From assembly GCA_051546255.1 (NCBI GenBank), contig CP128816.1, positions 1,798,001-1,862,000 of the forward strand: a DNA stretch of 64,000 nt, given 5' to 3'. Made by a program: the position numbers and the translations under genes. Shown piece after piece: positions 42,475 to 62,696 of the stretch. How positions within the stretch are numbered: position 1 is the first letter of the stretch; each line of letters starts with the position of its first letter. The notes below the pieces were generated by a model. The model was not told the DNA's origin, made no database searches, and saw only the letters and a program-made list of their open reading frames with translations. Source of the DNA: Meyerozyma guilliermondii (taxonomy: Eukaryota).

Positions 42475-44091
42475 CTAGGCTAGAGTATGTTCAACGTGCT
42501 CGACAGAAAGTTTGTGAGGACTAGCCAACATTGCAATTTCATGGTCGGCATCATCTCCAAAAACTTTTGCAACCTCTTCAAGAGTATAACCTGAGGTTTC
42601 TGGGAACATGAAGTACACAGTGATTACTTCCACCATATCCACACAACAGTATACGATGTAATATCTCCAAGATATGGCATCCATTGCAATCGGATTGACA
42701 AAGCCATTAAAGATTGAAATGACTTGCAGCACTCCTTGTACGATATTGATTCCTTTGGCACGATGACTATATGGCAAAACCTCTGTCAAGTACAAGAAAG
42801 GGAGTCCATTTGCTCCGGCATTGAATGCAACATAAAAGAGAAATATCATAGCCAATACTCCATTTGCAAAGGACTTGTCTTTAAAATCTCGCTGCTCATT
42901 GATTGCTGATAAGATGGTCCAAATCAGAAAAGTCATCACCATTCCTATGGTAGCGAACAAGAACATGGTACGCCGACGAAAGTAGCCTGCTACCGAAGCG
43001 ATAAAGATAGCAACGACAAGATTATAAATCATCAAGCAACCATTGATTTGAAGCTGACGATCGGGATCGGTAATGCCTATGGTGACCATAACCTTGGGCA
43101 AATAGAACGAAACGAGTCCGTTTCCTGAAAGTTGCATCAAGACGGGAAGAAACATGCAAATAAAGAGACGACGACGATAACTTTTCCTTGTGAAAAAATC
43201 AGTATATTTTGTCTTGTTAGCAAGTTTCTCCATTCTGATGGCTTTTTCAATCTCTCCCAATTCAAATTTGACAAGATTTTTGGCTCGTTCATCAGTGGAC
43301 CCTCCAGTATGGTATTTCACCAAAACCTGTTCTGCCTTGGCAATTTTACCTTTGCTAACCAAAAACCTTGGAGACTCCGGCACCATCAAAAAGAGACTGA
43401 TTTGCAATGCTGGCATGGCCGCTTGAAGGTAGCTAGGCAATCTCCATGAAGTGGAAGATTTGATATTTCTTGTACCATAAGTTACCCATGCAGCTATCAC
43501 CGCACCCAAGTACCAATTGGTGTTGTACCAGGTAGTAACGACTTGGCGATGGGTTGGATAAGCGATTTCAGATATTAATGTTGGTGAAGCAACCGCAGCA
43601 ATGAGGGTTCCTATTCCCAATATGATTCTTGAAACCAAAAAGAAGGCATAATTTGTGGATGCACCTTGTAACATTGCACCCACAACCGATACAATTTGAC
43701 CAATTACAATTGCCCACCAACGGCCCATTTTATCAGTCAAAGCTGGTGCTATAAAGATACCGATTATTCCACCGAAAACTTGACCATTTGCTAAAGCTCC
43801 CAAGATGTGTCCGGTAGGATGTCCCATTTTTGTTTCCCAAGTTTGTAACGACTGAAACCCGTTCAACATACTTCCGTCGTAACCATTATTGGTTGACGAG
43901 AGAGTCACCACAAAAATACAGAAGTTGAGGAACCAAAGATGCTTTACTTTCCACCATGGTTGAGAATGCGAAGTGAATTCGGAGATGGAGTGATTATCGA
44001 GGTCTGGATCGAGAGCAGGCACCAATTTGGCAATTTCAGGTTGGTGATTCGTATCGCCTTCCGAAGATTTTTCTGAAAACAGTTCTGACAT
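42475..44091 (-). CDS. Lactose/cellodextrin permease-like sugar porter (LAC12/HXT2.x/CDT group)
   Basis: NNGYDGSMLNG, DKMGR, ISEIAYPTHR, WYLGAVIAAWVTYGT, PESPRFL, QLSGNGLVSFY and PETSGYTLEE; TATAAATA 26 nt upstream of the ATG. Confidence 0.88.
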   Translation of the reverse strand: MSELFSEKSSEGDTNHQPEIAKLVPALDPDLDNHSISEFTSHSQPWWKVKHLWFLNFCIFVVTLSSTNNGYDGSMLNGFQSLQTWETKMGHPTGHILGALANGQVFGGIIGIFIAPALTDKMGRWWAIVIGQIVSVVGAMLQGASTNYAFFLVSRIILGIGTLIAAVASPTLISEIAYPTHRQVVTTWYNTNWYLGAVIAAWVTYGTRNIKSSTSWRLPSYLQAAMPALQISLFLMVPESPRFLVSKGKIAKAEQVLVKYHTGGSTDERAKNLVKFELGEIEKAIRMEKLANKTKYTDFFTRKSYRRRLFICMFLPVLMQLSGNGLVSFYLPKVMVTIGITDPDRQLQINGCLMIYNLVVAIFIASVAGYFRRRTMFLFATIGMVMTFLIWTILSAINEQRDFKDKSFANGVLAMIFLFYVAFNAGANGLPFLYLTEVLPYSHRAKGINIVQGVLQVISIFNGFVNPIAMDAISWRYYIVYCCVDMVEVITVYFMFPETSGYTLEEVAKVFGDDADHEIAMLASPHKLSVEHVEHTLA

Positions 44092-44821
44092 TTGGGCCAA
44101 TTAACTTCAGAGTTGTTATTTATAGTTCGGAGAGGCTATCAATGCACCGAAGTGTCAATGCAACTTCCCCGCAGTGCCGTAGCCAAGACTGCAACCTAAA
44201 AAGCATTCATATACGAAAACTAGAAAGTGCTAATAATAAAGGCCAACTGCCACAAATATGATTATGCCATACGAACTGACAGACAACTGACGAGGAAGCG
44301 GTGTCGCTTTTACCCATTGCAACCTCAGTGCGTCCCCCACACTCTAGCGCCGCATAGCTGCATTCCCTGCATTAATCCCCTGAGATTTGCGCAGGTCACG
44401 TCACATTCTTACCTCCGCGCCGCACGGTGAATAATCAATTTTCCTAAAAGCGACCCAAATATGAGGACAACAAGTCGAGAGCAATGTAGCAGCAATAATG
44501 GCAACAAATGAGTGTACGCCGAAGATCACAGAAGTTCAAGGAAAGTCATCAATGTCGTGAAGCGGAGAGGTACCTTAAGCAGGGAACATTACGTTATATC
44601 TGAGCGGTTGCTTGATCGTTCCGTCCCTGGTAAGTAGGTCAGCGTATCAATTAGGTTTATTTTCAAGAAACAAGCTATCAATTGAACATAGATATGTGCT
44701 TGTATTCGATATATAGGGCCAAAAAGTTATCAAATTCGTATGCGCGCCCAAAAATGGTTGCGAAAACTGGATGCGGATTATAACCTCTTATCTAAAGGGT
44801 GCGGTTAAAATGATTGTCCCG

Positions 44822-44977
44822 TTATAAGTGTATTTATATAACTTTCATACGGGTAGATCAAGATAAAAACTGATTTTCGATCGTTTTCCAGGATACGGCA
44901 GCAAGAACATGTCTTGCATTTCACATTGTAGTTGAGTACGATGATTTGACAAGCTTGCATTTATCATGTCAAGCTAC
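44822..44977. repeat. Array 3' cassette, copy 1 (downstream of paralog A)
   Basis: Shares TTATAAGT.TATTTATAT, CTGA.TTTCGATC, TCCAGGATA.GGCA, AGAACATGT, TTTCAC.TTGTAG and TTTGACAAG.TTGCA with the copies at ~46940-47158 and 48121-48316. Confidence 0.7.
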
Positions 44978-45109
44978 AAGAAAGTACTGTTCTGTAGACG
45001 AACAGTAGGTAGGGAAATACAATGAAGAGTTACCAAGTTGAACATATTCAATTCCACTAACCAGCCGCTAATATAACTGATAAATACTGTATAGCGAAGA
45101 ATCTTTGTA

Positions 45110-45470
45110 TTACTCTGCTTGGCGGTAGTAATAGTAGACCATACAACATGACCCAACGCCTATAATAAGAATAAATAAGTCCAGTATAATCTTTGTTGCT
45201 GGCTTTTTATATCGAATGGAATGGATTAAGGGTTCTATCCGCGATGCTGTATACCCCCCCAATGCCAAGTGCTAAAAGGAACCAGCACCAACCCAGATAG
45301 TTAGGAATCTTTATAGCAATGTCCTTTTTTGAGTCAGGGAAGACGAAAGATACCATTATGAACGAGCTTGAATAAAGTATGAAAAAAAGCAAAAATAAAT
45401 CTTCCCTTATCTTAAGCCTATGCCTATTTAGTTTTTCGGCCCTAGTTTCTGTAGTCCATTGTTTCTCCAT
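45110..45470 (-). pseudogene. Array paralog A: small multi-TM protein frameshifted in a G7 run (pseudogene, slippage allele or sequencing error)
   Basis: Starts MEKQWTTETRA. Removing one G at 45254-45260 gives a 119-aa protein ending YTASRIEPLIHSIRYKKPATKIISDLFILIIGVGSCCMVYYYYRQAE*, colinear with the C-terminus of paralog B. Confidence 0.75.
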
Positions 45471-45825
45471 TCTTGATCAAGAAACCATCAAAGGAACGCT
45501 GCGATAGAGGTTTCAAGTAGACGTATACGATAAATAATCTGCCAAATCTAGAGTCGCAAAAAAGTCGTACTTCTTATAGCAGGTCAAATGCACCTCAAAA
45601 TTATTATTGCAGCGTCCAGCCTACTTCTGCAATCTTTATACCCAATTAAATCCTTATACCTTCCCTTCCTCAACATTTTCCTTATACTTTCTGTACCTTT
45701 ATCTTTCTCTTCCTTCCTCTTCTGTAATAGGCAGGATTCCCACCATTATCAGCAGATTTGGAAGTTACCGAGTTGAGGCACATTTACTGCTTTTTTCCAT
45801 TCGTATTTGGCTCCTGATCGCCGAT
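45471..45825 (-). repeat. Array 5' cassette (promoter-like), copy upstream of paralog A
   Basis: Exact 23-mer AAATAATCTGCCAAATCTAGAGT at 45532-45554 also occurs at 46238-46260; GTATAAAG on the minus strand at ~45634-45641; boundary motif GTATTTGGCTCCTGATCGCCGAT at 45803-45825. Confidence 0.8.
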
Positions 45826-45849
45826 AATGTAGAAATCTTTGTACTTGTA

Positions 45850-46173
45850 TTACTCTAATTCGCAGTAGCCAATGTAAACCAAACGACAAAACCCAACGTT
45901 CATAAGAAACATGAATAAGAATTTAAAAATGTCTTCTAATGGTCTCTTATATCGAATGGAAGCGATTAAGATATACAAAGAAAATGCTGTACACATCACA
46001 AGAAAACCTGCAAGAAAGAGCCAAACAAAAACGTCAGGAATCTCTATATGAACAACAAGTACATGGATTGAAAGAAACACGAAAAAACTGAAAATCAAAC
46101 TCAAAATCAGTATCATGAGGTTATCAGCTTTCAGAATTTCGGTCCTAGTTTCTGTAGTCAATTGTTTCTCCAT
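45850..46173 (-). CDS. Array paralog B: 107-aa protein with ~3 TM segments, unknown function
   Basis: Intact ORF MEKQLTTETRT...SIRYKRPLEDI...VYIGYCELE; first ~10 codons nearly identical to paralog A. Confidence 0.65.
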   Translation of the reverse strand: MEKQLTTETRTEILKADNLMILILSLIFSFFVFLSIHVLVVHIEIPDVFVWLFLAGFLVMCTAFSLYILIASIRYKRPLEDIFKFLFMFLMNVGFCRLVYIGYCELE

Positions 46174-46543
46174 TTGTGATCAAGAATTATCAAAGGTACG
46201 CTGCGATAAAGCTAGGTTTTAAGTAGACTTATACGACAAATAATCTGCCAAATCTAGAGTTGTGAAAGAAAGTCGTAGCTTCCGCAAGTCCAAGTACCTA
46301 AATATGACTCTCGCAGCGTCCAGCTTACTTCACCAGCCTTTATACGCAATTAGATCCTTATACTTTCCGTTTCCTTCATTCTAGTCACAACTTTCTCCTT
46401 TTCTTCCTGTTCCTTTTTCTTACTCTTCTTCCGTCATAGGCAGAGTTCGCCGAAAATAATGAAAATTTACCGAAATAAAAAGTAGAACTACTGCAGTAAT
46501 GAACAGTCACATTGTAGTTTGTATTTGGCTCTCGATCGCCGAT
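46174..46543 (-). repeat. Array 5' cassette, copy upstream of paralog B
   Basis: Colinear with 45471-45825 and 48929-49157; GTATAAAG at ~46338-46345; boundary motif at 46521-46543. Confidence 0.8.
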
Positions 46544-46682
46544 CGAGCGGCAAAACTATATCGAAGGCATCATAAGATCTTAGATTAGCCGGTTCTGTGG
46601 GTCGCTGATAGTACTCGTCACGGTTGGAGAGTAGCACAAATGGATACTCAGGATGCTCTGTAGATGAGAGAAGGATGCACAT
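46488..46682 (-). pseudogene. 5' fragment of a TANGO2/NRDE family gene (YGR127W-like)
   Basis: MCILLSSTEHPEYPFVLLSNRDEYYQRPT...PLD is the TANGO2 N-terminus (MCI, NRDE, RPT). Homology stops after ~47 codons, where the array cassette begins. Confidence 0.8.
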
Positions 46683-46939
46683 TTGAACTGTAAGTGGTAT
46701 CCGCCAGCTGTGACCAAAAAAAATGGGTCACAATCGTGCAAAATCTTAGCGTGGGGTAACATCCAAACACCGCATAAATAGCTAAGTGGCTAGCAGAAAA
46801 ACTAATGCGAGACTTTATCCCATAAGTTGGGCCAAGCTGACACTATAATTGTAAGTTAAACTAGTTGCAAAGCTGCTTTTTGGTTTTTGTTTCTCTTTCG
46901 GCTGCTTGCTTTTCTGATTAACTTAGCTAACTTACTACT

Positions 46940-47158
46940 CTATTAGAAATCGATAAGTAATAGCCTGAAAGGGACTTACCGTTGAATTAAATGTTCAGTT
47001 TCTGGTCAATTCTTTTGACTTTCGATAGTAGCATCTTAAAGAATAAACTGGTTCTCGATCCAAGATTTTTAAGTTACAAGGTAAAGAACTTGTTGCACGC
47101 TTTCACAATGTAAATGAGTTTAGAGTGACAAGCTTGCAATTTCATTATGTCAAGGTAC
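46940..47158. repeat. Array 3' cassette, copy 2 (downstream of paralog C)
   Basis: TATTAGAAATCGATAAGTAATA matches 48122-48143; GTGACAAGCTTGCAATTTCATTATGTCAAGGTAC matches 44947-44977. Confidence 0.65.
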
Positions 47159-47291
47159 TTGCAAAATTTGTTATGTTTGAGACCAATGGTACGTATGACA
47201 GGCATACATTTTTATATATACGAGGACTATCGACCCACAAGCTAATGAAAGCATTTAGCTTGTGTTTATCGATCGTTAGACCTATAATTAT

Positions 47292-47813
47292 TCATGACAC
47301 AAAAGTAGCAAGTGTCATTTGACAGAGAATGACCATGCGATACACAGTTAAACTCTGTGAGTCGCTGTAGCCACTGTAACCAAACCATAATGCCAAAAGG
47401 CACGTAAGAAGAGCAAAACCGTTTTGCACAATATTTTCAATTGGCTCCCGACGCCAAATCGAAAGGATAAAGTAACGGCCCACATATACTGTATACGCGA
47501 GAGCAGTCGTTGCAGCAGCGTACCACCATCCCTCCGTAATTTCTAACTCTTGCTCGATGAAATCAGGTAATAGCTGCTGGCATGCTTGAAGGGATACAAT
47601 AGACACTTCCACTATTAAATTACCAATTCTTCTCCAGCCTACCCGATTGGCCCGAGTTTGGGTCGGACTAATCATGGACATTTCTTCCATTGGTGGTGTA
47701 TTCAATTCTTGCCATGCTGGTGTATTCAATTCTTGCCATGCTGGTGTAAACACCTCCACTGCTTCTTCTGGAGTCACTACTCTTCTTGCTCTTCTAGCTC
47801 TTGATCTAGGCAT
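47292..47813 (-). CDS. Array paralog C: 173-aa multi-TM protein with an Arg-rich/acidic N-terminal extension
   Basis: AAAAAATG start. PTQTRA resembles TTETRA; LEITEGWW...YTVY...LSIWRREPIENI...YSGYS aligns by eye with B (IEIPD...CTAF...SIRYKRPLEDI...YIGYC). Confidence 0.6.
   Translation of the reverse strand: MPRSRARRARRVVTPEEAVEVFTPAWQELNTPAWQELNTPPMEEMSMISPTQTRANRVGWRRIGNLIVEVSIVSLQACQQLLPDFIEQELEITEGWWYAAATTALAYTVYVGRYFILSIWRREPIENIVQNGFALLTCLLALWFGYSGYSDSQSLTVYRMVILCQMTLATFVS
47694..47748. repeat. Perfect 24-nt tandem duplication (2.3 copies) encoding TPAWQELN twice
   Basis: TGGTGTATTCAATTCTTGCCATGC at 47694-47717 and 47718-47741, followed by TGGTGTA. Confidence 0.9.
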
Positions 47814-47879
47814 TTTTTGCAATCGTGGACAAGAAGAAGACAAAGCACAAATGCGACCAGTGTTTTATTTGCAGCCATA

Positions 47880-47993
47880 TTACTCTTCTTACGTAATAGG
47901 ATTCTCATTGTTCGGCGGACCTGAGAATTTACCAATTGTTGAGGTAGAAGTAGGTTTTCGACCACCTTTCGTATTTGGTTCTTGATCGAAGAT
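47880..47993 (-). repeat. Partial array 5' cassette upstream of paralog C
   Basis: TACTCTTCTTACGTAATAGG resembles TACTCTTCTTCCGTCATAGG at 46421; boundary motif GTATTTGGTTCTTGATCGAAGAT at 47971-47993. Lacks the TATA-proximal part. Confidence 0.65.
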
Positions 47994-48120
47994 CATGCAA
48001 AAGCAAAAGGAATTGCCGCCTTAATTACAAAGTAAATTGGTTGCCAACTTTTTTTATTCTGTCATTTTTTCTCTGTATATATCTGATCAAGTCTGGCTAG
48101 AGAACTTCACCACTTCTCAT

Positions 48121-48316
48121 TTATTAGAGATAGATAAGTAATAATCTAGAAGGATGAACCGTAAAAATTCCAGCTTATAAGTCTATTTATATGACTTCCA
48201 TACTCGCACAGGTTAATGAGCTGACTTTCGATCCAAAATATCCAGGATAAGGCAAAGAGAACATGTTTTGGATTTCACGTTGTAGCTCGTGTTACAATAA
48301 TTTGACAAGTTTGCAA
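48121..48316. repeat. Array 3' cassette, copy 3 (downstream of paralog D)
   Basis: Colinear with 44822-44977 and 46940-47158. Confidence 0.7.
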
Positions 48317-48493
48317 TATTTGGTTCAGCTTATGACGAGCAGTATGTAGGAAAAACTTATATTACTAGACGACAACATTCAAAAGACGCACTCTCCATGA
48401 GCAATGGGAGCAAATAATCAACAACTTGCAGCAAAAAATGATTGGTGATCCACCCTTTTCAAGTCATTTCTAGTCATTCCAAGCGCAAGGTTA

Positions 48494-48928
48494 TTATAAC
48501 TCAGCATTCTCTTTGAGTTCATCCTCCTCCTCCTCCTCCTCTGTGATCTCTCCCGAGGTGGCTGATAGGATTAAAAATTCAAATAAACCAACCATAGTAT
48601 CTATTTGTAGTGATGGATAATAGTACTTGAAAGCGATGAAACTTGTCACATAGAACGCAACAACAGAATAAAACCTGAGTCTAACCTTTTTCCATGGCTC
48701 ACGGGATTGGCAGACGGCTCTCAACTCTTTAAAAGTAAATATCACACAACCGATTGCAATGCCAAACGAGATATAATTTTGAAGTTTATTCGTTTTTTTG
48801 ACAACATTCGCCTCCTGGCGTTCCTGAAGTTCACGAACTTTTTCTGCAAGCAGTATCAGCGCTGCCTTCAACGCTGCTCTCCAGCTATTGAGAGACATGG
48901 CCCAAGTTGTTGTCGTCGTATTTTCCAT
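48494..48928 (-). CDS. Array paralog D: 144-aa membrane protein with an acidic C-terminal tail
   Basis: MENTTTTTWA start behind the same 5' cassette. REPWKKV resembles REPIENI/KRPLEDI, FKYYYP resembles VYYYYR; hydrophobic segments and a poly-E tail. Confidence 0.6.
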   Translation of the reverse strand: MENTTTTTWAMSLNSWRAALKAALILLAEKVRELQERQEANVVKKTNKLQNYISFGIAIGCVIFTFKELRAVCQSREPWKKVRLRFYSVVAFYVTSFIAFKYYYPSLQIDTMVGLFEFLILSATSGEITEEEEEEDELKENAEL

Positions 48929-49157
48929 TTAATCAACTGCGCTGTAAAAGCTAGGTTTTAAGTAAACGTATGCCACTGCCAAGTCTAGAGCCGTGAAAGA
49001 AAGTGGTAGCTTCACAATTATAGCAGGTCAAATGAACCTGAAAATGAGCATTCAGCCTGATTTGCTATTGTTTCCTCTACTTTATACATTCCGTTCCTTA
49101 TTCTTTCCTTCCTTCATTCTCTGCACTGGTTTATGTCATCCGATGATAGCCAGAGAC
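48929..49157 (-). repeat. Array 5' cassette upstream of paralog D
   Basis: TAAAAGCTAGGTTTTAAGTA, CTGCCAAGTCTAGAG, GTGAAAGAAAGT, TTATAGCAGGTCAAATG and CTTTATAC are shared with the A and/or B cassettes. Confidence 0.8.
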
Positions 49158-49319
49158 AATTGAGCTTGACACCACAACCGGAAATGTAATATTGAGTACC
49201 ACTTCCTTGCTGAAGTAGCTCTCGGTCTGCATATTATTCACAGCTGTGCCTCCAGACACCACCGCATCCACCCGCCTGAGATGAGATGTAGTCAACACGC
49301 ACGCTCACCCCAACTCACA

Positions 49320-51662
49320 ATGTCGAAACTGACACCGATATCGCTCCCTCAATCGGTGCCGTTTCCGGTGACAGTGACACAGGTGATGATATCCCCAGGA
49401 CAAACATTGCCCCGTCACCAACCACTTCTCAAGTATAAATACTGGGATTATCAAGATAATCCAAATGACGCAGACACAGATGAACCCACGAAAATGCGGG
49501 TTGAACGTATAGGAACTTTCGAATCGCCTATTACAGGCGAAGTAGAAGAGGTTCAAGTGCGTGTGGGTGAGGAGATTCTTCATTCTCAAGTACAGTTGTG
49601 TCGGGTAAAAGAACCATGCGGACATGAAGTACAGTACGGTGGTTTATGTGCCATGTGTGGTTTAACTGTGGACGATAAGGATTATAGCGGCTACAGTTAT
49701 GAGGACCGTGCTACCATCAGTATGGCACACGATAGTACTGGGCTAAAAATTTCTTTTGATGAAGCAGCTAAACTCGAGCAATCTACAAGCGAGCGGCTCA
49801 CTTCTGAGCGTAAATTGATTTTGGTGGTGGATCTCGATCAGACCGTGATCCATGCTACTGTGGACCCCACTGTTGGCGAATGGCAGCTGGATCCTCTGAA
49901 TCCCAATTATAGGGCCGTCAAAGATGTGCGATCGTTCTGCTTGGAAGAAGACCCTATAGCTCCTCCAGGATGGTCTGGCCCTAAAATGACTCCTACCAAA
50001 TGCTGGTACTACGTCAAGGTCCGCCCTGGATTGGAGGATTTCTTAAAGAGGGTATCGCAATTATACGAGATGCATGTGTATACCATGGCTACTCGAAATT
50101 ATGCATTGGCTATCGCACACATTATTGATCCTGATGGTCGCTACTTTGGTGACAGAATATTAAGTCGAGACGAAAGTGGCTCGCTCACACACAAGAATTT
50201 GCGCAGACTTTTCCCCGTTGACCAACTGATGGTGGTTATCATCGATGATCGTGGAGATGTATGGCAATGGGAAAAGAACCTTATCAAGGTGGTTCCTTAC
50301 GAATTTTTTGTGGGAATCGGTGATATCAACCTGAGTTTCCTCCCGAAAAAGAATGGTCAAGTCACTGGTCCCATGCGTAAGCGTATTGCTCGCTTAGAGG
50401 CGTACGAAGAAAAACAAAGACGAAAGAGCCAGGGTGAGATTGTCGATGACGACGACCTGCAAGACCCACAAGACCCAGGGAGCGAGCCACCTCAAAACTT
50501 GGAGCCGCTGGCGATCCCGGAAGAAGCAGGTTCTGATCATTCAAACGACGAAGAATCACCTTCAAGAAGAAATTCAATTCATGATAACGACAAACCATCC
50601 CTGACCACCTCCTCACGCAGAAACCTGCAGAGTTTACAAGCATCACCTGTAGACCGAATAGTTGAACTTGGAGGTGACAAGGTCCAAATATTCGAGCAGT
50701 CTCTCACCCGCAATCAAAGCTTAGAGCAACAACAGCATGATCGACCCCTTGCAAAATTACAACACGATCTTGAAAAAATCAACCATGAACATGATGAGAA
50801 GGAAATTACCCCAGAATCGGATAACGAAGACAATCTCTTGTTTGATGATGATAATGAACTCGAATCGTTGAACGACGCTTTGGTTCGTGTGCATGATGAA
50901 TACTACCGCATATGGGATAGTTACAACGAAGACAAATCCCTAACGAATCCAGATCTTACTACCATCATCCCTTCGCTCAAAAGTAAATGTCTTGAGGGAA
51001 TAGTAGTGCTCTTTTCTGGAATTTTAAGATGGGGTAGTGATCCTCAAAAGGCAGACATAGTCATATGGTGTCAACAGTTTGGGGTCAAGGTGGTGAACGA
51101 GGTATATCCTGAAGTTACTCACGTCATCTGTAGAGAGCCCAGTGCTGGCGGAGGACTCACTTTCAAGGTACGAGTTGCTAAGAAGACACTTCCTAATGTC
51201 CATATAGTCACACCCGATTGGTTATTTGCATGTATGAGCAAATGGACTCGAGTGGACGAAAAGCCGTATGCAATTGAAGCCAGCGACGAAGATTTTTACT
51301 TGGAGGAAAAAGATTTGGTAAAGTATCAGGCAATTATCGAGGACCCAAGAAAAGCACCAGAACTGCGACCACGATTTGATTCTGTTGCAAGTATGGAGGA
51401 GTACGATTTGGATGGTGCCAGTAAAGAAGTTGATGACTTTTTGGCAGATATTAGCGATGAAGATGAAGATGGGCAGGAAGAGGAGGAAGAGGAAGAAATC
51501 AAGGAAGACGAACCCAAAAAGGATACTTTCATACTGGACTTGTACAAAAAGCGGAGGGCTAATGATGATATTGACTCTCTGGCCAAGAAAGCTAAGCAAA
51601 ATCCCGATACGCTAGACGACCTTGAACAGGAACTAATGGATGGGTTTGACGACCTTGAATGA
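49320..51662 (+). CDS. FCP1: RNA polymerase II CTD phosphatase
   Basis: N-terminal swivel/biotinyl-like region, LILVVDLDQTVIH (DxDxT), YYVKVRPG, SRDESG, IIDDRGDVW, and BRCT VTPDWLFAC. Confidence 0.95.
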   Translation: MSKLTPISLPQSVPFPVTVTQVMISPGQTLPRHQPLLKYKYWDYQDNPNDADTDEPTKMRVERIGTFESPITGEVEEVQVRVGEEILHSQVQLCRVKEPCGHEVQYGGLCAMCGLTVDDKDYSGYSYEDRATISMAHDSTGLKISFDEAAKLEQSTSERLTSERKLILVVDLDQTVIHATVDPTVGEWQLDPLNPNYRAVKDVRSFCLEEDPIAPPGWSGPKMTPTKCWYYVKVRPGLEDFLKRVSQLYEMHVYTMATRNYALAIAHIIDPDGRYFGDRILSRDESGSLTHKNLRRLFPVDQLMVVIIDDRGDVWQWEKNLIKVVPYEFFVGIGDINLSFLPKKNGQVTGPMRKRIARLEAYEEKQRRKSQGEIVDDDDLQDPQDPGSEPPQNLEPLAIPEEAGSDHSNDEESPSRRNSIHDNDKPSLTTSSRRNLQSLQASPVDRIVELGGDKVQIFEQSLTRNQSLEQQQHDRPLAKLQHDLEKINHEHDEKEITPESDNEDNLLFDDDNELESLNDALVRVHDEYYRIWDSYNEDKSLTNPDLTTIIPSLKSKCLEGIVVLFSGILRWGSDPQKADIVIWCQQFGVKVVNEVYPEVTHVICREPSAGGGLTFKVRVAKKTLPNVHIVTPDWLFACMSKWTRVDEKPYAIEASDEDFYLEEKDLVKYQAIIEDPRKAPELRPRFDSVASMEEYDLDGASKEVDDFLADISDEDEDGQEEEEEEEIKEDEPKKDTFILDLYKKRRANDDIDSLAKKAKQNPDTLDDLEQELMDGFDDLE

Positions 51663-53667: not shown

Positions 53668-55184
53668 ATGATATGTTCACGTAAGTACCACAGCTCCACA
53701 CTTTTAGTATCTGAACTATACTAACTCCAGTTTCCGGTAAAGAGGCCGAAGAACCAGTGATATCTCGCAAAAGTGGAGCGATATTCGAGCGTAAACTTAT
53801 AGAAGAGTACATCAGTGCTCATGGGAAAGATCCTATTTCTGAAGAAAATCTAACAATTGAGGACCTTACCAAAGTCCAAGGTGTCCCTGAGTACGTTCCA
53901 CCCCAATTACCATCTCTGGCATCGATTCCTAATCTCCTAAAAACTTTTCAGAATGAATGGGATGCTCTTGCATTGGAAGTTTTCTCGCTTCGTAAACAGC
54001 TTCACAAAGCTCGTCAAGAATTGAGCGCCAGTCTTTACCATTACGATGCCGCCGTACGTGTGGCTGCCAAGGCGACGGAAGAAAGAGATGAAGCACAAAG
54101 AGCATTGAAGGAATTGTCTCAAGCAGTAGGAAATGGTGTTTCTCAAATCAAAAACGATATTGATAATGGTCATCCATACAAAAACGGAGATGAAATACCT
54201 GTATCCACTAATAATATACTGCTCAGTGATATAGCTGAGGAATTGGAGGTGGAACGAGAACGTCTCTTTGCACAGCATAAGGCTCAGAAGAAGACCACCA
54301 AGCAATTTTCAGGAGCCGACTATTCGATTCAAATGAAGGAAAATATTCCACTTCCATTCAAAACACTTGCTACAGTGGCTTATCGCGACGGAATGCTTGC
54401 TCTAGCTTCCACAGCTGGGTCTATAACTATTGTGGACGTGCAAAACGATGCTAACACCACAAAAATTGTCCGTAAGGGAAAACCTTCAAACATCACACTT
54501 ATCAAATCCGAAGGACAAGTAGTACCAGTGGCAACGACCAAGGATAAAATCTTTGTTGGCAGCGAAAAAACATCATTACAGCATTCAGGAGAGATTATAG
54601 CCATTGCTTCGCATCCAACGTTGGCTTACTTTGTTGTAGTTGGACGAACAGGATGGCTGCTTGCTACTACCAACTCGATAATTCATCAAGATTCGACTCC
54701 ATACATAAGCGCTGCTTTCCATATTGATGGAAAATTGGTAGCATTAGGGTCCAGTTCAGCCATCGACATTGTGGATATTTCGACTGCTGAAAAGGTTGCG
54801 GCGATTGAATTCAGTAATGCCAACAAACTCCTATTTGCCCCCAACGGATATTGGCTACTTGCACTTTCCAACGAATCTCTCCTGGTGATTGATATTCGAA
54901 CACAATCCGTAGTGGGAAATATTGAAGGGTCCTTCAAGGACTTTGTTATCGACCCTACCTCCACCATTATCATTGCAACGAGCGAAGACTCCACTTTCCT
55001 ATACAAATATTCCAAATCTGAAAAGCAGTGGATGAATGAACCTGTTGTGCACCTTGACCAAGGGATACGCTCAATCTTTATCCTGGACGATGTTCACTTT
55101 GAAGATTATTTGCAAACTGGAGATATTCCATTTATTGGAATTGACACCGATATCAGAAAGGGAGAGCTAAAAAAGGAAAACTAA
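53668..55184 (+). CDS. PRP19: Prp19 U-box/WD40 splicing factor; exons 53668-53680 and 53731-55184
   Basis: 50-nt intron GTAAGT...TACTAAC.TCCAG. The spliced N-terminus MICSLSGKEAEEPVISRKSGAIFERKLIEEYI is the U-box; SIPNLLKTFQNEWDALALE. Confidence 0.93.
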
Positions 55185-61208: not shown

Positions 61209-62696
61209 ATGCTAGTACATTGGCTCGGCTTGCTAGCTGGTACGGCTCTTGCACTTCATCCTGTCAAAGATTTTCGAACCGCGTCGTTGCAAAAGCTTAA
61301 AGGCGGCGTTTCCAAACAAAATGTTGCCATACAAGTTCCGGGGAAATCTGAGTCAAATGCTGCTTCCTACACCATCATTACAGTGAGCACATTGCCGTCT
61401 CTGGCACCAACCATTGCTGTGTCAGACAAGATACAATATGTTCTTACTGACGTGTCTCAGTCGATATACTATATTAACACTACATTTACCGATACCGAGA
61501 CTCAGTATGAACAAACTTTCCAATTACTTTTGGATAGTGGCAGTGACTTCACGTGGATATATAACCAGTCGTGTAGCTCTGGTGCTTGCACAAGGGATCT
61601 GGTACCAAAATTTAACGACAGTCGAAAGATAAATTCTGGCGATAAGTTTGAGTTGTCTTACTCGGGCGACTCGGTTTCTGGAGACATTCTTAGCACGTCT
61701 TCTACGGACAAGACAGTGTTTGCATTTGGCTCATTACAACTAACGAGTTTTGAATTCGGGCTAGCCGACGAAGCACCCACGATCTTCAATGATTTCAACG
61801 TTAGTGGTATTTTGGGTATTCCCAGTCAATCAGAAGACCACACCAAAAGGTCAATGTTCTCGCAACTTTATAACGAAAAAATTATTGACAAGCCGGTCTT
61901 TTCATTGGCTCTTGTCGCTTCTAATCAGCAAATCGAGTACTCTGGAAACGTCTCAGCATTACCAGACAACTACGGAGGTTTGATGTTCTTTGGGTCAGAA
62001 GTGGCTAAAAACCAGCAAACTTTCACCGACTCTGTCAAGTATCTCAACATTCAAAGCAATGACAATGCCTATTGGCTTGTGAATGTGACAGACATAAAAT
62101 TATTCAACGACTCATATTCGGGAGACTTTGATATCTCGGAGTCTTCGCTCCAGGCTATCATTGATACTGGAACCACTGGCATGGCATTGCCTATGGACGA
62201 TGCCGACAACTTGCATTCTCAACTTTTTGGCTCCAGTTTGGTAACAGACAGCAAAGGTAATTATGCATTTCCTTGCGACGCAGACGCCAATATTACTATC
62301 AGCCTCGATGGCCAGAAATTTTCAATTTCAGTAAGTGACTTCAAAGGAGACGAATATGGGTCCCAACTAGAAGGTTATTGCGCATCCAAGATACAGGGTC
62401 TCGACGATAACAACTATTGGATTTTGGGATCTATCTTTCTCCGTCGTTACTATGCTATATTTGATATCCAGCAGCATAAAATTGGACTTGGCGTGAATAA
62501 TTTGCTGCTGTACAAGTTGAAAGAGGTAAAGCCAACCTCAATCACTTCAAGCAGTTTGTCCTCTTCCACCATAGTGCATGGCAACTCTTCAAGCTCTCAA
62601 TCTACAAAGCACTCTAAAACGAGCCTGGCTAATAGTTCAGGACTGATCGCTGGTCTTTCGTACGCTTTATTGTGCATGTTTGCGTACATAATATAA
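61209..62696 (+). CDS. GPI-anchored/yapsin-like aspartic protease (family A1)
   Basis: Signal peptide MLVHWLGLLAGTALA, LLDSGS and IIDTGT catalytic motifs, WILGSIFLR, Ser-rich stalk and hydrophobic C-terminus. Confidence 0.85.
   Translation: MLVHWLGLLAGTALALHPVKDFRTASLQKLKGGVSKQNVAIQVPGKSESNAASYTIITVSTLPSLAPTIAVSDKIQYVLTDVSQSIYYINTTFTDTETQYEQTFQLLLDSGSDFTWIYNQSCSSGACTRDLVPKFNDSRKINSGDKFELSYSGDSVSGDILSTSSTDKTVFAFGSLQLTSFEFGLADEAPTIFNDFNVSGILGIPSQSEDHTKRSMFSQLYNEKIIDKPVFSLALVASNQQIEYSGNVSALPDNYGGLMFFGSEVAKNQQTFTDSVKYLNIQSNDNAYWLVNVTDIKLFNDSYSGDFDISESSLQAIIDTGTTGMALPMDDADNLHSQLFGSSLVTDSKGNYAFPCDADANITISLDGQKFSISVSDFKGDEYGSQLEGYCASKIQGLDDNNYWILGSIFLRRYYAIFDIQQHKIGLGVNNLLLYKLKEVKPTSITSSSLSSSTIVHGNSSSSQSTKHSKTSLANSSGLIAGLSYALLCMFAYII

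Follow-up and report, generated by a model that had tools for sequence, protein, structure and literature searches.

A rapidly diverging family of small membrane proteins in Meyerozyma guilliermondii with a possible role in toxin defence

Four small, highly divergent ORFs (A to D) lie in tandem between a sugar permease gene and FCP1 in a 64,000-nucleotide stretch of the Meyerozyma guilliermondii genome, here called the window (Table 1), and raise the question of what such an array of predicted membrane proteins is for. A preliminary description of this DNA took the ORFs for paralogs of no recognised family, set in homologous non-coding cassettes and subject to birth and death, and likened them to the DUP240 and wtf families. 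The two flanking genes carry consecutive numbers in one annotated assembly, and C alone among the four is on record, as a sequence under the yeast code in NCBI and UniRef. The literature searched, with subscription papers and supplementary tables outside its scope, neither describes the family nor mentions the presumed neighbouring locus tags.

Table 1. The four ORFs, their non-coding modules and the flanking genes, in window coordinates
Feature	Position	Strand	Remarks
MFS sugar (lactose-type) permease, left flank	42475..44091	-	
Module T after A	44780..44989	.	shorter copy
ORF A	45110..45470	-	frameshifted in window, 87-aa product; 119 aa when intact elsewhere
Module U of A	45472..45698	-	TATAAA at 45640, 170 nt before ATG
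Module V between B stop and U of A	45703..45848	.	directly adjoins B stop
ORF B	45850..46173	-	107 aa; three long hydrophobic helices at 7-40, 47-74, 79-106
Module U of B	46175..46398	-	82% identity to U of A
Module V before U of B	46401..46557	.	
TANGO2 5' fragment	46488..46682	-	first 49 codons match; runs into module V
Module T after C	46851..47169	.	
ORF C	47292..47813	-	173 aa; exact sequence in NCBI/UniRef
Module V before C	47862..48016	.	
Module T after D	48027..48341	.	stops in all six frames
ORF D	48494..48928	-	144 aa; family's most distant member; cluster n=17
Module U of D	48929..49139	-	75% identity to U of A and of B
FCP1 CTD phosphatase, right flank	49320..51662	+	divergent from D, ~390 bp between

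Kinship among the ORFs was assessed by pairwise alignment under code table 12, with 2000 global and 2000 local shuffles for each pair. A and B align with a score of 139, which no shuffle reaches. In the same tests, restricted to the four ORFs alone, A-C (p 0.005/0.007) and B-C (p 0.008/0.054) follow, and the three pairs involving D are not significant (p 0.06-0.97), so that the membership of D is not demonstrable within the window alone and is shown through outside members. A profile built without its own ortholog scores D at 16.8 bits, a value that 0 of 1000 local shuffles reach. Leaving out the bridging protein P0138 as well, to which D is 35% identical (BLASTP, E 4e-17), still gives 12.5 bits (1 of 1000 shuffles). 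C reaches 32.4 bits against a profile lacking its ortholog (0 of 1000 shuffles). Judged from these alignments, all four ORFs are paralogous, A and B directly, C and D by way of distant members; the four minus-strand paralogs of the preliminary description are thereby confirmed at their coordinates, and a failure of the ORFs to align is excluded. A single clade of the array genes is rejected (p-AU 0.0005), for a group chosen after the tree had been viewed and in trees of a kind that recombination distorts. As the nearest outside members are also unplaced, no order of events is drawn.

The motif skeleton said to be shared by the four proteins is present, in a looser form than had been claimed. 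D has no SI in its basic loop. The first of its helices is charged, not hydrophobic, and coiled-coil-like, and is followed by hydrophobic segments and a poly-Glu tail of varying length. C is moderately hydrophobic and carries an additional hydrophobic segment at its C-terminus; its N-terminus contains 24-bp repeats (47679-47750), and its second ATG, at 47690, aligns with the start of A and B.

The array is one locus of several, which the earlier account had understated. Searched with a profile, 1.84 billion representatives yielded family members, one repeat artefact and nothing else. Once P0136 (687 aa), a repeat artefact, and the fragment P0135 had been removed, 31 rows formed 14 clusters at 50% identity, spread over several chromosome-sized contigs; since protein databases show open frames only, intact members are over-counted. 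The family is thus a multi-locus one of single-ORF proteins of 100-175 aa with three, in some members four, helices.

Non-coding homology accompanies the genes as well. The cassettes noted earlier are real in their homology and resolve into three separate modules that do not attend every gene. U lies upstream of D, B, and A, T downstream of D, C, and A, and V ahead of C, B, and A. The window contains exactly three copies of each, with leave-one-out E values of 2e-6 to 2e-36. C is without U, its identity there (50-58%) being at the level of shuffles, and B is without T, a repeated non-coding element of ~300 bp. The unit of the array is V-U-ORF-T. U is likely promoter and 5' UTR; a TATAAA read by eye stands ~160 nt before the ATG in U of D and ~170 nt before it in U of B. 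The captured gene fragment reported before proves to be the 5' part of TANGO2, matching profile positions 1-49 of 257 in Pfam PF05742 (E 1.9e-13). An Rfam search of 44000-49400 gave a single match, at chance level.

AlphaFold builds B from three long helices (pLDDT 75.7, pTM 0.58), the number found in two models of family members. By the positive-inside rule, the N-terminus is predicted to be cytosolic, the variable loop 1 outside or luminal, and the basic IxSIRYKxP loop cytosolic. Variation is unevenly distributed over this plan. The N-terminal block and the basic loop have a column entropy of 1.5 bits, the helices and loop 1 one of 2.3-2.6 bits. Loop 1 ranges from 5 to 31 residues across the family (about 6 in B), and a net basic loop 2 occurs in 27 of 29 rows. 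Between A and B, identity is 82% in the upstream DNA, 90% in the first 13 codons and 83% in the IASIRYKRP block, and falls to 38, 44 and 62% in the helix segments. Non-coding DNA is therefore better conserved (75-82% upstream) than the DNA encoding the helices (38-62%).

Comparison with sequences beyond the window, which is at the protein level and assigns genes to one contig by equal contig size, indicates fast turnover. On a contig 321,350 long, the flanks differ at 36 of 1306 positions (2.8%), A at 8 of 116 and D at 10 of 85, and two B-type genes at 31 of 105 and 35 of 106. On another, 24,466 long, a B-type gene that differs at 34 of 105 positions (32%) lies between flanks that differ at 8 of 881 (0.9%), and resembles the form found in a more distant lineage. 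Within the commonest allele group the family again exceeds its flanks (10/525 vs 14/2622 differences, p 0.003); in one of four comparisons the excess is not significant (4/365 vs 7/2258, p 0.055). Exchange of segments is visible on a long contig, where P0086 and P0084 differ at 0 of 40 positions and then at 29 of 66 (0 of 1000 permutations), and the mosaic form of P0086 recurs in the independent Logan record P0127. Three further mosaics, P0087, P0119, and P0093, each on a single contig of 0.5-2 kb, may be assembly chimeras.

Loss is equally apparent. The reading frame of A is broken once, at a G7 run (45254-45260) that is the sole G/C run of at least seven in the 64 kb. Its cluster is intact in four of five members (18 contigs) and truncated in one, a Logan contig; on these records, the frameshift is strain-specific. 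A mere assembly slip is a weakened explanation, the 87-aa form being present also in a read-derived Logan record, possibly of the same strain. A nonsense allele is common in the P0130 cluster, with a 68-aa form on 36 contigs and a 124-aa form on 20. P0091, 70% identical to A, may be an allele of A or a paralog elsewhere, the latter because a cluster member seemingly shares a contig with the P0132 type. The family thus turns over through duplication, segment exchange and loss, and the birth and death first surmised from the window is borne out by the mosaics, the divergence relative to the flanks and the segregating nulls.

Selection on the proteins is harder to read. For A-B, the sole pair computed, dN/dS is 1.27 (95% bootstrap 0.74-2.08) and is not distinguishable from 1; in the third helix pN is 0.43 versus a pS of 0.19. 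A neutral simulation of B avoids a stop in just 12% of runs at 0.3 substitutions per site. In helix hydrophobicity the B and P0132 types exceed the neutral range, and A lies within it (mean 1.33 vs 0.28-1.51 at 0.6 substitutions per site).

The reading we favour, with a probability of about 0.35, is that the family acts as a toxin-defence repertoire in the manner of KTD1, a DUP240 gene. It draws on the placement of the variation in helices and loop 1, as in KTD1, and on divergence above that of the flanks, the mosaic, the segregating nulls and the frames kept open. The copies would represent specificities towards foreign proteins that enter membranes, of which yeast killer toxins are the most likely. 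A function common to all members, either sorting or contact with a host partner, would fall to the conserved N-terminal block and basic loop. The toxin that a given copy binds or diverts would be set by loop 1 and the helix faces. New specificities would arise by exchange, with the IASIRYK block, or the conserved promoter together with the N-terminus, as its anchor, and unneeded copies would acquire null alleles. In a broader form, to which we give a little less than an even chance, this would be an independent Meyerozyma conflict family unrelated to DUP240 and wtf, with at least 14 minimal three-helix subfamilies in modular cassettes on several chromosomes. Recombination anchored in the promoter and IASIRYK block would make its specificities, and deeply divergent forms would be kept across lineages as a combinatorial anti-toxin (or poison-antidote) repertoire in CUG-Ser yeasts.

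The likeness to DUP240 and KTD1 is one of evolutionary pattern: in each case small multi-helix membrane paralogs are confined to a lineage, their alleles vary between strains and some copies are truncated (parts of PMC9974470; parts of bioRxiv 10.64898/2026.08.07.743514). In KTD1, too, variation is concentrated in the helices and luminal linker, which hold the selected sites (PMC9974470, in part). Positive selection and toxin defence are demonstrated for KTD1, whereas the family here is known from sequence, and no homology to DUP240 or to any known immunity protein is detectable in it. DUP240 proteins are about 240 aa long. They have two helices joined by a short linker and a large cytosolic C-terminal part, in contrast to the 100-175 aa and three or four helices found here, and fold comparison by PDB searches yields generic bundles only. 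Pfam holds both a DUP and a WTF model; the former is unlisted at E up to 0.5-1 for 11 or 29 members, the latter for all 29. Identity with DUP240 or wtf proper is rejected on length, the lack of Pfam matches, and the absence of intron signals and PY motifs.

An alternative only slightly less probable, which stays a near-equal rival because dN/dS is not significantly above 1, is a dispensable, lineage-specific accessory membrane family under weak constraint. Its repeats would simply recombine, with membrane insertion and two short motifs alone conserved and no antagonist involved. The dN/dS interval spanning 1, the common null alleles and the neutral-range hydrophobicity of A would all be expected, and the TANGO2 fragment and absent modules would mark a rearrangement-prone locus. 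Less easily accommodated are the persistence of fourteen subfamilies, the B form of a more distant lineage between nearly identical flanks, and the greater conservation of U than of helix-coding DNA, a difference that gene conversion by itself might produce as well.

A poison-antidote spore killer like wtf, in which short forms would be toxic and forms with a longer N-terminus would neutralise the matching ones, is improbable. The wtf genes likewise encode transmembrane proteins at multiple loci and undergo copy-number change, non-allelic conversion that spans promoters, and intragenic repeat change (PMC6526906, in part). The 24-bp repeats of C and the repeated N-terminal blocks of P0128, P0133, and P0093 recall the last of these, and several members have alternative in-frame starts. 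Nevertheless, wtf antidotes need PY motifs (PMC10721834, in part), which are absent from 32 of 32 rows here. The drivers are multi-exon genes with a second transcription start in intron 1, and are associated with LTRs or other dispersed repeats. The ORFs here are uninterrupted and much shorter, with no branch-point motif in 44100-49300, no evident two-promoter structure and, in A and B, no room for a second N-terminal form. The U copies have no Ndt80- or Ume6-type site in common, and WTF is not matched in Pfam. The comparison first drawn with DUP240 and wtf thus stands for the pattern of fast divergence, segment exchange and segregating nulls, and is weakened on the wtf side.

More doubtful still is self/non-self or partner recognition, whether in mating compatibility or in contact-dependent inhibition between strains, with matching paralog sets defining kin. 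The outward loop is variable and highly divergent forms are common to lineages (P0086, P0127), but in B this loop is very short (about 6 residues), no pheromone-response motif was found, no signalling or death domain is attached, and common nulls fit poorly. Least probable, and largely refuted, is a conserved small membrane family (a transporter accessory, stress proteolipid, or OST- or cornichon-like subunit) diverged past detection: the resemblance is that of generic helical bundles and nothing more, the profile search gave family members and an artefact only, and no match emerged from Pfam (best E 0.008 over 29 members, none at the curated cut-off), PDB sequences (best E 0.21), Foldseek against PDB and viral structures (generic bundles, nothing at E 0.001 or below) or VIA-align (best Z 9.7, below the level meaningful for bundles), which does not prove a new fold. 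PHROGs and the ESM Atlas likewise give nothing above chance or generic bundles. The absence of a recognised family is thus upheld, and a known housekeeping membrane family excluded, none having matched.

Two other groups of genes tied to killer toxins invite comparison with the favoured defence repertoire. PAU (seripauperin) proteins are near-identical and secreted or cell-wall. They resemble the family in being small and multi-copy, and are linked to K2 tolerance (PMC13442484, in part), whereas the present proteins are polytopic, highly divergent and free of Pfam matches. Like the immunity genes of virus-like elements (VLEs), the array is slightly AT-rich (38.9% GC vs 43%). VLE immunity proteins are not secreted and stay inside the cell as partners of tRNA/rRNA nucleases (PMC13348850, in part). 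No toxin, chitinase or VLE gene adjoins the array, and searches with family alignment A1 gave 0 of 68 in viral contigs and 0 of 14 in prokaryote genomes.

Because M. guilliermondii serves as a biocontrol agent and faces killer yeasts as competitors, strain differences in the family could have practical consequences. A proven defence role within DUP240 belongs to one gene only. A 2026 preprint found a single Dup240 to be required for K28 defence (bioRxiv 10.64898/2026.08.07.743514, in part), so that a general repertoire is unproven even for the model family, and whole innate yeast repertoires against killer toxins are speculation in the KTD1 paper (PMC9974470, in part). An unrelated family that bears this evolutionary signature in another yeast clade would offer an independent test, with proteins small enough for one-by-one screening. 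Were it a spore killer, it would place such a system in a budding yeast; were it neutral, it would still be an unannotated family.

Some minor observations concern the searches. A 19-bit profile match at 61387-61629 of the window is compositional and lies inside an unrelated gene, in another frame. With B as query, 0 of 595 pattern matches in JGI metagenomes were confirmed, and an FCP1 probe led to 3 distant loci of 29-44% identity, where nothing scored meaningfully as a family member. CTG in hydrophobic stretches was considered as a trace of standard-code origin and rejected, the residues aligned at A96 being polar; the B protein, read with CTG as Leu, is present on 23 contigs (P0099).

The four minus-strand open reading frames A, B, C and D, whose coordinates in the preliminary description proved correct on re-checking, are, judged by their sequences, members of one family, as had been proposed. 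Pairwise tests within the window were clearly significant for A and B and borderline for A and C and for B and C, and D gave no significant pairwise match to any of the other three. A profile from the A, B and E types (E being a further family member) gave C 14 bits, a score as high in 0/1000 local shuffles, and D 4.6 bits, as high in 30/1000. The paralogy of all four is borne out by leave-out profiles after members were added (C 32.4 bits and D 16.8 bits, 0/1000 shuffles each) and by the alignment of D with P0138, a protein from outside the window (35% identity over 104 residues, E 4e-17).

Coordinates of the array, its parts and neighbouring features within the window
Feature	Position	Strand	Remark
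MFS sugar permease	42475-44091	minus	flank of array
Array	44780-49280		38.9% GC; 43% on both sides
A	45110-45470	minus	frameshifted
G7 run	45254-45260		breaks A
B	45850-46173	minus	
TANGO2 5' fragment	46488-46682	minus	fused to module V
C	47292-47813	minus	
D	48494-48928	minus	
D C-terminal poly-Glu tract	48494-48540	minus	length varies by several residues between assemblies
D-FCP1 interval	48929-49320		about 390 bp, divergent genes
FCP1	49320-51662	plus	flank of array
Prp19-like WD40 ORF	54333-55184	plus	283 aa; propeller alone covered

Family searches returned 4 matches with a single protein, 15 and 11 with two word-seeded profiles, and 18 with an exhaustive profile search of 1,835,955,588 representatives, of which 17 were family by inspection and one a repeat artefact. 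Clustering of 31 selected rows, from which near-identical alleles, a fragment and the artefact had been removed, gave 14 groups at 50% identity; at 80% there were 22. Member listings gave no names for family members, and Pfam, PHROGs, PDB, fold and Atlas searches with the family yielded no usable match, in line with the earlier failure to recognise one. No description was found in the literature, supplementary expression tables that possibly list C lying outside its coverage, nor was any mention found in the available portions of PMC13348850, PMC13442484, PMC11855519 and bioRxiv 10.64898/2026.08.07.743514. The family is real and apparently undescribed, a fast-turning set of membrane proteins likely restricted to Meyerozyma.

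Evidence from outside the window is protein-level throughout, and genes there are linked solely via equal 'longest contig' values. A common value of 1,268,964 suggests a second array holding the P0125, P0129 and P0133 types, the latter two found on 49 contigs each. Other members list contigs of 1,022,981, 965,880, 941,479 and 335,987; P0164 lists 1,973,873, the value shown for A, B and D in one of the assemblies, and the placement of E is ambiguous (672,201 versus 672,061 for the array group). In P0093 and P0131 an E-type core is preceded by a long N-terminal stretch built of 7-residue repeats, which resembles the repeat region of C.

The homologous non-coding cassettes noted previously, partial ones included, resolve into modules U, T and V, each present in three copies in the window, all within the array. 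Read along the minus strand, the order is U-D-T, V-C-T, TANGO2 fragment, V-U-B, V-U-A-T, most simply derived from an ancestral V-U-ORF-T unit through later loss of pieces. Module U also lies upstream of E (from the read-through translation P0094), and within the U of A, B and D a TATAAA, read by eye, stands 160-170 nt 5' of the ATG. Searches with motif patterns revealed no meiotic or pheromone motif shared among U copies. With D and FCP1 divergent across about 390 bp, the U module of D may have regulatory DNA in common with this housekeeping gene.

Signs of birth and death were likewise upheld: A is frameshifted, module pieces are missing, and the captured gene fragment is a piece of TANGO2. 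Within the window three frames are open, one carries a recent frameshift and zero copies are decayed. A is intact in 4/5 cluster members (18 contigs), the fifth, a read-derived Logan record, being truncated to 87 aa; the G7 run is the sole G/C run of at least 7 in the window, and a putative slippage-based on/off switch is possible there. In the P0130 type, a common nonsense allele at a conserved Trp codon 5' of the second helix leaves a 68-aa form on 36 contigs, with the intact 124-aa form on 20, contigs not being equal to strains.

Family proteins differ more than their neighbours. Within the commonest allele group, divergence is 1.9% for the family versus 0.53% for flanks (p 0.003); on contig 1,973,873 the values are 1.1% and 0.31%, an excess that is not significant (p 0.055). 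The 321,350 contig, which lists A, D and two B-type genes, differs from the window by 2.8% in three flanking proteins, 6.9% in A, 11.8% in D and 30 and 33% in the B types, with CTG differences discounted, and the 24,466 contig by 0.9% in two flanks and 32% in its B type. P0086 equals the B allele P0084 over 40 columns, after which 29/66 columns differ (0/1000 permutations). Among 14 pairs given this mosaic test, 10 stood at <=7/1000 and 4 above, several of the 10 drawing on single short contigs, possibly chimeric.

From a 32-row alignment, AlphaFold predicted for B three helices (7-40, 47-74, 79-106; pLDDT 75.7, pTM 0.58). Its model of the intact A allele was similar and weaker (pLDDT 65.8). 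Loop 2 is net basic in 27/29 rows, so by the positive-inside rule it and the N-terminus would be cytosolic and loop 1 outside. At the DNA level the window's A and B are 82% identical upstream, 90% identical over codons 1-13 and 83% identical across the IASIRYKRP block, dropping to 38-62% for the helices. Their dN of 0.68 and dS of 0.53 (ratio 1.27, bootstrap 0.74-2.08) exclude strong purifying selection and are compatible with neutrality. Neutral simulation of B without indels left stop-free frames in 28%, 12% and 4% of cases at 0.15, 0.3 and 0.6 substitutions per site; for hydrophobicity, the B and P0132 types lie above the neutral range and A does not. A fair reading is that the scaffold is constrained while helix and loop sequence is nearly free, possibly driven.

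On the favoured reading, the family may be a defence repertoire like KTD1, the S. cerevisiae DUP240 gene acting against K28 killer toxin (probability about 0.35), a tentative proposal in which we infer the steps from pattern to function. According to PMC9974470, KTD1's selected sites lie in helices and the luminal linker, which sets K28 protection, and the same kind of parts, helices and loop 1, vary here. A dispensable family under relaxed selection, an almost equally probable alternative, would account for most of the data that defence explains. The preliminary analogy with DUP240 and the wtf meiotic drivers stood as to evolutionary pattern, which resembles both; membership in either is rejected on the features testable here. 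A wtf-like driver is unlikely: the pattern fits (PMC6526906), but the family is without intron signals and without the PY motifs described in PMC10721834, and a motif search found no branch point in the locus. Kin recognition is less likely again, and a hidden housekeeping family the least likely.

Records of Meyerozyma sp. JA9 and of Meyerozyma guilliermondii (FCP1 as PGUG_02226) are found in the 90% clusters of the flanking genes, which points to M. guilliermondii or a very close relative as host; translation accordingly used table 12 (CTG = Ser). In JA9 the permease (RLV86130) and FCP1 (RLV86143) share a 'longest contig' value with accessions 13 apart; if accession numbers run in positional order, JA9 has a larger or rearranged interval there. 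KAJ9094581-5, labelled Naganishia cerealis, are 98-99% identical to their counterparts in the window (permease, FCP1, SUR7-like and phosphomutase), and their locus tags follow the window's order. Naganishia cerealis is a basidiomycete, and its assembly probably contains Meyerozyma DNA here; because permease and FCP1 carry successive tags, its annotation has no array gene. For the Prp19-like WD40 ORF, the 5' part may be absent or encoded by an exon further upstream.
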